This document shows positions 5,979-64,000 of a DNA stretch of 64,000 nt, in pieces (within the stretch, counting starts at the first letter, position 1; each line of letters opens with the position of its first letter). The translations under genes were made by a program, and so were the position numbers. The notes under the pieces were generated by a model. The model searched no databases. It saw nothing but the letters and a program-made list of their open reading frames with translations, and was not told the DNA's origin. This DNA comes from a virus (lineage: Duplodnaviria; Caudoviricetes). Where the stretch lies: the IMG/VR virus record IMGVR_UViG_3300044856_000241, positions 128,001 through 192,000 of that record. One strand, written 5' to 3'.

Positions 5979-6413
5979 TTATTTCCTCCTCGCTTTCATC
6001 ATTTTTTCTCTGTATTCTTTGATCTGCTCCATTGATAACCACTCAGGTTTATCTTCTAGCGAATTCCAAATCCGTTCCATTTCATCACAGATTACTTCTA
6101 CACTTCCGCCCCATAAGTGTCCCTCGTAACCATTCCCATTCCCTAAGAAATAATTGCAATCCGATCTCAATCTATCAAGCATCATATAATCAAACTCTCT
6201 TGGATGACGAATAAATGGATCATCACACTCAATCGGCTCTGTCACTCTTGTGTTTGGTTCGCCGCAAATTTCACCACATTCTGTTCTGTAAGCACCTGTA
6301 TATAGATTTAAACCATTGCGACCATCATTTTCATCGAAATATAACTTTCCATTTTCATCTTCATAGCAAGGAACTTCCATGTATCCTCCAAAACCAACAT
6401 ATTTAACTTTCAT
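5979..6413 (-). CDS. LPD11 (large polyvalent protein-associated domain 11) protein
   Basis: YMMLDRLRSDCNYFLGNG...LWGGSV...KPEWLSMEQIKEY matches the LPD11 pattern. Confidence 0.75.
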   Translation of the reverse strand: MKVKYVGFGGYMEVPCYEDENGKLYFDENDGRNGLNLYTGAYRTECGEICGEPNTRVTEPIECDDPFIRHPREFDYMMLDRLRSDCNYFLGNGNGYEGHLWGGSVEVICDEMERIWNSLEDKPEWLSMEQIKEYREKMMKARRK

Positions 6414-8086: not shown

Positions 8087-8290
8087 CTATACCTCCCGTA
8101 TACACATTATGTTTCCGTTTTCTAAATGCATGAGCCATTTTGTCCCGCAATACTGAAACACCATCACTCTCCATTCCCCGGAATACCCGGAACCGGATAC
8201 ATCTGCCTTAATATGTCCGTATCTTTTAAGTTCGTGATACTGTTCTTCTGTTGTCATACTCCGTAAATCTTCTACAAATTTTTCTCGCAT
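8087..8290 (-). CDS. hypothetical protein
   Basis: Start MREKF after GGAG SD. Confidence 0.65.
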   Translation of the reverse strand: MREKFVEDLRSMTTEEQYHELKRYGHIKADVSGSGYSGEWRVMVFQYCGTKWLMHLENGNIMCIREV

Positions 8291-8292
8291 AT

Positions 8293-8475
8293 CTACTCTC
8301 CAATTTCTCCAGACCAACAATTGAATATTGGTCGGTTATCATTTTCTTTGTCAATTACTTCACACTGAAATTCAATTGCATCTCGTTTCGCTTGCTCAAG
8401 ATCATCAGTGTCTCTCAATCCTTTTGGCAGACCAAACCAGTCTACAAATTTGTATCTCCCGGAAATCCTAACCAC
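8293..8475 (-). CDS. hypothetical protein
   Basis: Fills the operon gap; GGGAGTGG SD. Confidence 0.6.
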   Translation of the reverse strand: MVRISGRYKFVDWFGLPKGLRDTDDLEQAKRDAIEFQCEVIDKENDNRPIFNCWSGEIGE

Positions 8476-28402: not shown

Positions 28403-28670
28403 GTGAGTTACCACAAACTATATAAGTTTGCGGTTTCTGTTAAATAGCTCACCAGACTAAGTTGTTAGAAATGGCAACTACGATATTTAGGTCATGATAC
28501 CCTCGGTTGACGCAACAGACCGTCGCTCTATCATACATATTTAAGTTAGGTCAGAGTAAGAACAGCCTTGTGATATGTATGCGAAAAGCTTTTATATCAT
28601 TGTCGAGTTGAAGTCGGAACAGCTGTGTGGTAACAGTACAGCAAAGTACGCATCACCTGCCATTTGGTAG
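28403..28670 (+). ncRNA. omegaRNA (HEARO) of the IscB element
   Basis: GTGAGTTA...TAGCTCAC-CAGACTAAG...CTACGAT...ATACCCTCGGTTGACGC...CATTGTCGAG segments directly upstream of iscB. Confidence 0.8.
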
Positions 28671-39262: not shown

Positions 39263-39309
39263 TATCAATATTTCGCTTTTTTGTTAAGAGAAAAAAGGAA
39301 GTGAGATTA

Positions 39310-40332
39310 TTGAACGGTAAGATTGCAGACAGATCAAACGAAATCACAGAAGAAGAATGGTTACAAGTTAATGAATTTAACAGAAGGATGGTTGACGATT
39401 ACCTCAGTAATCAGACACATCTTTCACCTCAGAGTTTAACTGCATACAAGAGCGCATTAAGGATATTCTTTGTATGGGTTAAAGATAATTTAAATAATAA
39501 AAATTGTATCGAAATTCGAAAGAAAGAATTTTTACGCTATATGAATTGGCTTGCTAATAGGGGTTTTTCTGAATCTGGAATTAAATTCAAAAAATCATCT
39601 GTTAGCGCATTTAACAAGTTTATTGAGAATTTTTATGACGAAGACTATCCTCTTTTTAGAAATTACGTCACAGCAGAAATGCAAGTACCCAAAACTGGAA
39701 AAGTATTTGCAAAAGAACCGCTAACTCCAGATGAATTAAAGCATTTATGTAATGTATTAGAAGAACGTGGAGAATGGCAAAAATTAGCTTATGTGAAATT
39801 TACATATTCAACCGGTTGTAGACGCGCGGAAAGTATGCAATTACTTAAAGAAGTTGTCAATTACGAGCCAAAACGAAAAATAGTTATAATTGTAGATGAA
39901 AATGGTAAAGAACAAGAAGCAGAATCTGTATCATATAAAACACATGAAATTCGCTGTAAGGGAAGAAGCTCTGTTGGTAAGGTGCGTAAACTTCAGTTTG
40001 GACAAGATGTTATGGATGCATTAAAGAAATGGCTTGAAGTACGAGGTGAAGATGATTGCCCATATATGTTTGTTGTAAAACAGAAAGATGGGGAAACACA
40101 CCAAGTAAGTAAAAGTGTTTTTAATGATTGGTGTATCGGAGAATTTTCCGAAATTGTGGGAAGGAGAACTACACCACATAACTTCCGGCGGAGTCGTGCA
40201 ACGAATCTAGTTTGTTATGATCATCGTGCTTTAGAAACGGCTCAAAAATTACTTGGGCATGAATCAAGCGAAACCACACAAATGTATGTAATTCGTGAAG
40301 ATTCAGAAGATGCTGATGAGGCTTTTATCTAA
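39310..40332 (+). CDS. tyrosine recombinase/integrase
   Basis: STGCRRAE, KG, PHNFRRSRAT, LLGHES, TQMY catalytic residues; TTG start after AAGGAAGTG. Confidence 0.92.
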   Translation: MNGKIADRSNEITEEEWLQVNEFNRRMVDDYLSNQTHLSPQSLTAYKSALRIFFVWVKDNLNNKNCIEIRKKEFLRYMNWLANRGFSESGIKFKKSSVSAFNKFIENFYDEDYPLFRNYVTAEMQVPKTGKVFAKEPLTPDELKHLCNVLEERGEWQKLAYVKFTYSTGCRRAESMQLLKEVVNYEPKRKIVIIVDENGKEQEAESVSYKTHEIRCKGRSSVGKVRKLQFGQDVMDALKKWLEVRGEDDCPYMFVVKQKDGETHQVSKSVFNDWCIGEFSEIVGRRTTPHNFRRSRATNLVCYDHRALETAQKLLGHESSETTQMYVIREDSEDADEAFI

Positions 40333-40446: not shown

Positions 40447-40534
40447 TGGTAGGTATGCAAATGGCTGAAGCAAGCGGACTGTAACTCCGTGACCCGCGTG
40501 GTAAACATTGTGAGTTCAAATCTCACCCTCCCAA
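40447..40534 (+). tRNA. tRNA-Tyr(GTA)
   Basis: GCGGA-CTGTAAC-TCCGT; long variable arm; GTGAG-TTCAAAT-CTCAC; one acceptor mismatch. Confidence 0.85.
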
Positions 40535-40560
40535 TAAAAAAAGAAGCATCTCTGCTTCTC
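40535..40560 (-). terminator. terminator of the small-peptide transcript
   Basis: AGAAGCA-GAGA-TGCTTCT plus T run on - strand. Confidence 0.65.
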
Positions 40561-40621
40561 TTCTATCTATAACAAATCTTATGTAAGAAATTATAATCCC
40601 ACCAAGCTCAACAGAAAAGTG

Positions 40622-40702
40622 TTAGTTCATAAAAGTATGTACAACTTCCAGCACTAATGTTAGTGCTTTTAGCCCTAAGATGATAACTGTTAACTTCATC
40701 AT
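40622..40702 (-). CDS. 26-aa hydrophobic peptide, type I toxin-like
   Basis: MMKLTVIILGLKALTLVLEVVHTFMN; GAGGAGGTG SD; promoter upstream and terminator downstream. Confidence 0.65.
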   Translation of the reverse strand: MMKLTVIILGLKALTLVLEVVHTFMN

Positions 40703-40858
40703 CTCAGACCACCTCCTCTCGTTGAACGAAAAGTGATGTGTACGAGCCGGCACTTGCCATAAACGGCGACCGTAATTAATCTCTGTATGTTGCTCGTCTT
40801 ACCATGGGTGCTGTAACACCCTGAATCCTTTTGGGATTCTCGACCTCACTAAAAGAAA

Positions 40859-40887
40859 ATAATACTATTTATATAGGTATTTGTCAA
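40859..40887 (-). promoter_or_regulatory. SigA promoter for the small peptide
   Basis: TTGACA-17-TATTAT. Confidence 0.7.
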
Positions 40888-40899
40888 TAGATAGTTTTT

Positions 40900-40957
40900 G
40901 GTGTGCTGCCACCATAATGCAGAACTATATAACGGTGTCCCACTACCATAAAGGTGG
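40900..40957 (+). ncRNA. two tandem ToxI-like H-type pseudoknots (34-nt period)
   Basis: GGTG-TG-CTGC-CACC-ATAAT-GCAG and GGTG-TC-CCAC-TACC-ATAAAG-GTGG; stems preserved by compensatory changes. Confidence 0.6.
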
Positions 40958-40966
40958 ATTATGTTT

Positions 40967-40998
40967 AGCCAGGATTTATACAGTTCTGGCTCTTTTTA
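40967..40998 (+). terminator. intrinsic terminator after the pseudoknot repeats
   Basis: AGCCAGGA/TTCTGGCT stem plus T run. Confidence 0.6.
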
Positions 40999-40999
40999 T

Positions 41000-41081
41000 G
41001 CTGCATGTCCGGGTGGTGAGGAAGTGGTCTTGAAAACCATTGGCTGTTAAAGGCTTGCAAGTTCAAATCTTGTGTGCAGCG
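41000..41081 (+). tRNA. tRNA-Ser(TGA), non-canonical acceptor/D junction
   Basis: GCTGCAT/GTGCAGC; GTGGT-CTTGAAA-ACCAT; variable arm; GCAAG-TTCAAAT-CTTGT; G discriminator. Confidence 0.8.
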
Positions 41082-41089
41082 TTTTTCAT

Positions 41090-41172
41090 GCGGGAAGCCT
41101 GATGTCAAAAAGTAGATGTGCTCGGATGCATACAATGAGTACTACTCTGTGGGTTCATCACCTACTCCCGCC
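41090..41172 (+). pseudogene. tRNA-like element / degenerate tRNA
   Basis: GCGGGA/TCCCGC acceptor, GTGGG-TTCATCA-CCTAC T-arm, variable hairpin; no canonical D-arm or 7-nt anticodon loop. Confidence 0.5.
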
Positions 41173-41176
41173 CTAC

Positions 41177-63027: not shown

Positions 63028-64000
63028 TGTCAACCTATAATCAATATAGACGGAAGTTTAATATTACTTCTGATAATCAATCTATCGTTACGCCTACTAC
63101 TCTTGGTCAGAAATTAAAAGCAGAATCTGATCAAATGATGGAACGAACTTTGGATGCCGATTTACAATCTAAAGTTTGTTACATTTATGATTATTACCAT
63201 GATGACCAGCCTGATAAAAAAGATCATATGACTTATGAATACACGACTAAAACACGTATTGATGCGAAGTTTTTTATGAAAACTCATCAGTCACTAGATA
63301 AGGATCAGACTGAGTATTACTTACAATTCAAACCATCTCAGAAATTGGAATTCGTTCCTGGAGATGAGTTGTATTATTTTGAAACTGATTACCGAAGAAA
63401 ATTTTGGAGTGAATTTCCGATAGGTATGTATTGCGATATTGCTAACGAAAAAGGAGTCTATGAGAAATGGATCGTTGTTGGTAAGGAAATTTCTAATCAG
63501 TTTACAAAATATTTTGTATTGCCGGTTGATTACCGTTTACAGTGGATTGAACGTTCCGGAAGGGCAAAAATAAAACGTCAAATGTGGGGAACCACAAGGA
63601 GCCAAAGTTCGTATAATGTGTGCGCTTCATATCGGAAACGGTATGTCGAAAGTTTTCTAATTGCTGGAAACTCTCAGTATGTTATCGGTACAGTAAAGTG
63701 TGACAATCTGATAACTGGAGACAATCAGCAGCGAAGCTTCTTATTTAATAAGAAGAACGTTCAACGATCATGCGCCCAAGTGGGCTAATGGAAACCACCT
63801 AAGTCTTTTAAAAGATATGGTGTTGATATGCTCTGACCTTCATGGCGACATGGAGAAAATAAAATTATTACAATTTTATCTTTATTGAATTAACGACTCA
63901 ATAAAGTAACAATCAAAAAAAATGACACTATTGGTACGTATACAGATCGCTATATCACCAAACAAGATAATCAGCAAAAATTCAAACTTCCATTGAATCC
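63027..64000 (+). CDS. head closure/connector-like protein, exons 63027-63612 and 63925->64000
   Basis: Splicing gives ...RSQSS-Y-TIGTYTDRYITKQDNQQKFKLPLN, open to the window end. Confidence 0.7.
63613..63924 (+). ncRNA. group I self-splicing intron without homing endonuclease ORF
   Basis: P AATTGCTGGAAA, Q AATCAGCAG, R TCAACGATCA, S GATATGCTCT; exon ends in U, intron in G; P1 and P10 pairings; GNRA hairpins. Confidence 0.88.

Follow-up and report, generated by a model that had tools for sequence, protein, structure and literature searches.

Bacterial toxIN loci pair a tandem array of small pseudoknotted antitoxin RNAs, ToxI, with a downstream endoribonuclease gene, toxN. The locus described here raises the question of why a phage should carry two ToxI-like RNA units among its tRNA genes, and of what these units might do there. 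The DNA we analyzed, referred to below as the window, is a 64-kb stretch (bases 128001–192000) of a 203.6-kb phage record from IMG/VR (G000) that is rated 100% complete.

Anatomy and setting of the array

Two units of 23–24 nt each lie on the plus strand of the window, at 40900–40922 (unit 1) and 40934–40957 (unit 2), and each has the layout of an H-type pseudoknot made of two interleaved 4-bp stems with no junction base and a loop 3 that starts with AUAA. Unit 1 combines stem 1 GGUG/CACC with stem 2 CUGC/GCAG, and unit 2 combines stem 1 GGUG/UACC with stem 2 CCAC/GUGG; as read from the sequence, their loops are of 2, 0 and 5 nt and of 2, 0 and 6 nt, respectively. The unit starts are separated by a repeat period of 34 nt (40900–40957). 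In these respects the sequence is as the original prediction had described it. That prediction also held that stem 2 differs between the units at three of four pairs; the actual figure is two of four, and both differences are double, compensatory changes. The G-U pairs of stem 1 are compatible with the plus strand only, on which the tRNAs also lie.

The linker between the units (40923–40933, plus strand) begins with AAC, like many of the sequences that follow bacterial ToxI units, and by reading does not have the run of A residues found in bacterial linkers; indeed, neither the linker nor the 3′ tail has more than three consecutive A residues. A terminator-like hairpin of 10 pairs (40967–40991) with a U run closes the array (40967–40998, plus strand), in keeping with the intrinsic terminator predicted to follow the units, and a hairpin and U run stand in the equivalent place in the related phage loci L052, L054 and L101, as well as after bacterial toxI arrays. 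Directly downstream of the array, in the slot that toxN holds in bacterial loci, is the gene for tRNA-Ser(UGA) (40999–41082, plus strand), and the same neighbor is present in L054, L101, L236 and L237. The array types found in this phage group all lie inside the tRNA region.

The tRNA gene upstream of the array encodes tRNA-Tyr(GUA) (40447–40534, plus strand). In L236, the distance from the end of tRNA-Tyr to unit 1 is 5 nt, and the array takes up all of the space between tRNA-Tyr and tRNA-Ser; L237 shows this arrangement on the opposite strand, with a few bases between tRNA-Tyr and unit 1. Because the array lies between tRNA-Tyr and tRNA-Ser in both of these near-identical relatives, we consider it to be part of the tRNA operon. 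Co-transcription with the tRNAs would follow, because L236 and L237 leave no room for a promoter belonging to the array. In the window, no σ70-like promoter was found on the plus strand just upstream of the array, a point against the decoy role proposed below. (A promoter-like site at 40569–40597, plus strand, would run antisense through the inserted cassette described below and toward the array.)

In the window phage only, a 360-nt insertion, absent in L236 and L237, parts tRNA-Tyr from the array. This cassette (40535–40894, minus strand), which is separate from the element, comprises a strong promoter (TTGACA, 17 nt, TATTAT), a strongly structured leader (about 150 nt, fold z −4.4) whose strong Shine-Dalgarno sequence is buried in a stem, a hydrophobic ORF of 26 codons and a bidirectional terminator; judged by these features it is a type I toxin-like cassette.

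Other features of the region and its surroundings can be recorded here. The gap between tRNA-Ser and tRNA-Glu (41083–41176, 94 nt) has an equal length in L236 and L237, which suggests a conserved element. In a related phage, L003, a tRNA with anticodon UUA at 6099–6183, a predicted ochre suppressor, lies beside tRNA-Glu. Rfam matches above the gathering score in the window were to the HEARO RNA (HNH endonuclease-associated; 28403–28618) and to a group I intron (63603–63855).

Six-frame searches of the complete phage genome and of five related phage records, of which two are complete, detected no ToxN (PF13958). The identical search does detect ToxN in bacterial genomes, with 57 positive genomes among 301 from the R. 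torques family and 82 among 251 from a second gut Firmicutes family (19–33%). The original prediction had recognized no toxN in the window, and the searches extend that observation to the rest of the genome and to five relatives; a cognate toxN elsewhere in the phage, which could have accounted for the array as an ordinary toxin–antitoxin remnant, was therefore not found in this genome or in those relatives. With tRNA-Ser in the slot of toxN and no ToxN in the genome, the array is an orphan, outside any toxIN locus.

Reciprocal searches between phage and bacteria

ToxI RNAs follow a general pattern, that of an H-type pseudoknot with two stems of 3–4 bp, 0–1 intervening base and a 5–9-nt loop 3 (PMC3401426). 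The layout that the original prediction had given for ToxI agrees with this pattern, and also with the annotated pseudo-ToxI of phage phiTE and with a genuine toxI array. In particular, the phage array shares with the ToxI of toxIN systems (P. atrosepticum pECA1039; Firmicutes ToxIN/AbiQ; PMC3401426) the pseudoknot layout with stem 1 GGUG/YACC and a terminator after the last unit. Its 34-nt period falls within the 31–46 nt known for ToxI, and many Firmicutes ToxI units likewise have a loop 3 that starts with AUAA.

Going from phage to bacteria, we searched about 186,000 species, with one genome per species, for a pattern made up only of stem 1 and the opening four bases of loop 3 from both window units at variable spacing, with stem 2 left out. 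The search returned 44 matches, compared with about 0.25 expected by chance according to our calculation. Nearly all of them came from gut Firmicutes (Lachnospiraceae, Blautia, [Ruminococcus] torques ATCC 27756, Erysipelotrichaceae and Clostridium-like MAGs), and the matched bacterial arrays consist of 2–4 units with a period of about 34–38 nt, followed by a terminator and then an ORF. At 38 of the 44 matches (86%), a ToxN-like ORF lies on the same strand, 0–450 nt downstream, and all ten of the downstream ORFs that were tested matched the Pfam ToxN_toxin family, with E-values from 1e-20 to 1e-54. Features outside the pattern also agree between the phage and the bacterial arrays, namely the position and length of stem 2, the AAC after stem 2 and the terminator. 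Within genuine single bacterial arrays, the units differ in stem 2, with compensatory changes. Three of the bacterial matches (L125, L137 and L141) are ToxI-type arrays with no detectable downstream ToxN ORF, and the Oceanobacillus genome that holds L125 has no ToxN match anywhere; they may be orphans, or their partner may be a different toxin.

In the opposite direction, we gathered toxIN loci with the ToxN protein family as the sole criterion and built a covariance model, R1, from 12 distinct ToxN-adjacent bacterial units. (Note that R1 carries stem 1 only, because MAFFT misregistered the 3′ arm of stem 2 across loop-3 sequences of differing length.) When the 64-kb window was scanned with filters off, unit 2 was the best match (26.3 bits, E 2.5e-4), as it was across the whole phage genome, and unit 1 ranked third in the window (14.9 bits, E 0.15, at 40898–40926), 34 nt upstream of unit 2 on the same strand. 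Homologues of unit 2 were the top R1 matches across 695 kb of related phage loci. As controls, genuine ToxI of P. atrosepticum scored 19.3–21.5 bits and the phiTE pseudo-ToxI units scored 19.3 and 14.2 bits, so that the phage units score in the range of genuine ToxI. Two reciprocal searches, one finding ToxN beside 38 of 44 bacterial matches and the other finding unit 2 at the head of the R1 ranking, thus uphold the ToxI reading of the units.

Unit 2 in particular has close bacterial counterparts. It shares a 14-nt core with one type of Lachnospiraceae ToxI, and in the ToxN-adjacent units of loci L189 and L181 both this core and the stem-2 partner are identical to those of unit 2, with a longer loop 3. 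For unit 1, the first stem (GGUG/CACC) is common among bacterial ToxI and the second stem is absent from the bacterial ToxI sampled; a search for its stem-2 variant in 401 Lachnospiraceae genomes gave 9 random-looking matches, as against 2 in a reversed control. The Rfam ToxI model gave no match for the region. It gave none either for the phiTE pseudo-ToxI or for the genuine toxI array, which consists of about 10 repeats beside an annotated ToxN on a P. atrosepticum plasmid; since this genuine array also yields no match, the Rfam result carries no weight.

Conservation and covariation in related phages

Single pseudoknots with two 4-bp stems in such a layout are about as frequent in real as in shuffled sequence: a descriptor search found 21–28 per strand in the 204-kb genome and 20–25 in shuffles, and a lone unit for this reason carries little meaning. 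By our estimate, a pair of units on one strand within 34 nt is expected about 0.1–0.2 times per genome. The decisive evidence for the predicted units is comparative.

The gene that flanks the array upstream (39301–40332) has 154 relatives in viral contigs, and a homologous two-unit array directly follows this gene in L052, L053, L054, L072, L083, L086 and L101. In arrays of the L052/L101 type, unit 1 pairs GGAU/AUCC in its first stem and CUGC/GCAG or CUAC/GUAG in its second, and unit 2 pairs GGUG/UACC or AGUG/UACU in the first and UCUC/GAGA in the second; each of the four stems has therefore changed on both of its arms and remains paired. The linker of these arrays keeps a weaker AAUAAAG. A third array type, with the stem 1 variants GGUU/AACC, CGUG/UACG and CGUG/UGCG, occurs in at least 10 closer relatives, including L007, L008, L013 and L020, and the array of the window is near-invariant in the two near-identical metagenome contigs L236 and L237. 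At least three array types thus persist in the phage group with compensatory changes.

When 10 distinct phage versions of unit 2 are compared, 97.5% of the cells that should pair are paired, as against 23–72% when the partners are slid, and covariation extends to both stems. Three pairs have changed on both sides, and none of 500 shuffles attained the covariation score. Both the array and covariation were therefore found when related phages were examined, and the covariation supports the prediction that each unit folds as a ToxI-type pseudoknot.

The exact 23-mer of unit 1 had no match in viral contigs, blastn of the region against cultured phages returned tRNA matches only, and of 35 matches to an 18-nt pattern of unit 2 in viral contigs 8 were true, the rest being mostly unrelated conserved coding sequence.

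Homologues of the flanking gene also occur in bacterial assemblies, in 3 of 301 from the Lachnospiraceae family, and none of these three loci has an array within 1.5 kb. These homologues hint at hosts in the Lachnospiraceae, which, along with other Clostridia, are the likely hosts.

Possible roles of the array

We think it reasonably likely that the locus is an orphan array of two ToxI-family RNA units that acts, within a phage tRNA operon, as a decoy for host ToxN. Its architecture parallels that of toxIN loci (units, terminator, downstream gene), with a tRNA in place of toxN. According to this proposal, the array would be freed from the operon transcript by 5′ and 3′ processing of the tRNAs and would be ended or stabilized by its own hairpin, each unit adopting the pseudoknot that covariation supports. 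Phage-induced shut-off of host transcription is known to let labile ToxI decay and so to free ToxN (PMC13728456, PMC13064643). The array RNA would then bind the host endoribonuclease of the ToxN/AbiQ family and hold it inactive, and abortive infection would therefore fail; a strongly expressed tRNA operon, as a source of ToxI-like RNA, could keep ToxN bound.

We infer binding and inhibition of ToxN by the array from the precedent of the phiTE pseudo-ToxI, which in its wild-type form (1.5 repeats) is unprotective until expanded, and which in its expanded form escapes ToxIN (PMC3475682). Like the phage array, the phiTE pseudo-ToxI is a phage-borne look-alike of ToxI that has no toxN and scores in a similar R1 range. 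The two differ in host clade and ToxI subtype. Moreover, whereas wild-type phiTE holds no full unit and gains protection only after laboratory expansion, the array described here has two full, non-identical units, is conserved in a natural group of gut Firmicutes phages and lies in a tRNA operon. Phage proteins that neutralize host toxin–antitoxin defense are also known, among them TifA of T4, which inhibits ToxN (PMC13728456), and orphan DarG-like antitoxins (PMC11825919). The array would resemble these as a phage-supplied neutralizer but would differ from them in being an RNA that copies the host antitoxin. In the literature we searched, phiTE was the only case of a phage ToxI mimic, beside such protein countermeasures. 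In phiTE itself (L118, 106689–106829), the pseudo-ToxI runs directly into bases that resemble the T arm, acceptor 3′ strand and CCA of a tRNA, and a stretch resembling a D arm comes before it; ARAGORN called no tRNA there, and these flanks may represent another link between a ToxI mimic and a tRNA gene.

ToxI–ToxN pairing is selective, and much of the contact in the solved complex comes from the single-stranded tails. For these reasons, and because the A-run, which in bacterial linkers probably holds the ToxN cleavage site, is missing here, the common core is no guarantee of binding. A further point against the decoy proposal is the second stem of unit 1, which was not found in the bacterial ToxI sampled. 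Nor need two unlike units mean two targets, since the units of genuine single arrays vary in stem 2.

The phage array differs from bacterial ToxI in several ways. Unlike toxIN, the array has a tRNA downstream and no toxN there or elsewhere in the genome; unlike bacterial ToxI, it lies between tRNA genes without a promoter of its own; unlike ToxI linkers, its linker has no A-run; and it comprises only two units, which are more dissimilar to each other than most adjacent bacterial units are. The array could be a ToxI-derived RNA with some role other than ToxN inhibition, serving the tRNA precursor as a spacer for structure or processing, or acting as the ligand of some other protein of phage or host, for example a different RNase. 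We regard this as unlikely, although the exact placement of the array between two tRNAs in L236 and L237, the lack of the A-rich linker and the occurrence of unit 1 variants (GGAU/AUCC, CUGC/GCAG) with no bacterial counterpart among our samples are all in its favor. Against it stands the retention of the array in L052 and L072, where the downstream tRNA-Ser is undetected, and the signature shared by the units is 86% specific for bacterial toxIN loci, with no alternative partner apparent.

It is less probable still that the array is a functionless, decaying remnant of a captured toxIN locus from which toxN has been lost. The missing toxN, the divergence of the units from one another and the degenerate linkers are what such decay would leave behind. 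Against this, the stems stay paired through double changes across lineages in which the flanking protein is 60–89% identical, three array types are maintained, and the array is near-invariant in L236 and L237.

Two further explanations appear highly improbable. One is that the array is a tandem riboswitch or attenuator that governs read-through into tRNA-Ser: small pseudoknots do precede a terminator, and the linker is able, in the window alone, to base-pair with the terminator's 3′ half (inverted repeat I2), but no Rfam riboswitch family matches even at E 10, there is no junction loop for a ligand pocket, and such units flank ToxN genes in bacteria. The I2 pairing is not conserved in L052-type arrays, and we rejected it as an anti-terminator. 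The other, a type I RNA antitoxin pairing with the mRNA of the 26-codon hydrophobic peptide (40535–40887), would fit the divergent layout and the strong structure of the minus-strand mRNA (z −4.4), but we rejected it for want of extended complementarity (28% of shuffles equal the duplex energy) and of co-conservation with the toxin mRNA, given that L236 and L237 retain the array without the inserted cassette and that arrays occur without it in other phage lineages.

Arrays of this kind can also be seen in cultured phages. Lactococcus phages of the genus Ceduovirus (c2-like, 22 kb) carry 2–3 tandem ToxI/antiQ-like units between the genes for a Holliday-junction resolvase and an endolysin, for example in L238 (PQ594014.1, 14638–14706) and L239 (NC_054990.1, about 8270–8375) and also in CHPC1242 among others. 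These units score 25–34 bits with R1, and the 22-kb genomes contain no ToxN. The arrays go unmentioned in a 2026 review of lactococcal Abi systems; they offer a tractable system for testing RNA mimicry against AbiQ.

A broader proposal, which we advance tentatively and hold to be somewhat doubtful, is that ToxI mimicry is a common natural counter-defense of Firmicutes phages. Non-identical units would be placed in tRNA operons or near lysis genes and excised by host tRNA-processing enzymes rather than by ToxN, and would be swapped, or mutated with compensatory changes, so as to keep pace with the ToxI/ToxN variants that hosts carry; the present array, with its two unlike units, would then be directed against two types of ToxN.

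The array is a full, conserved and toxin-less ToxI array that occurs naturally in a group of large gut phages, as opposed to the laboratory-expanded one of phiTE. If its proposed function as a decoy for host ToxN is true, RNA antitoxin mimicry would be a regular part of the phage arsenal, and the array would add a class of non-tRNA cargo to those of phage tRNA islands. It would also provide concrete ToxI–ToxN pairs for tests of specificity, as well as a sequence clue that links uncultured phages to hosts with the corresponding toxIN.
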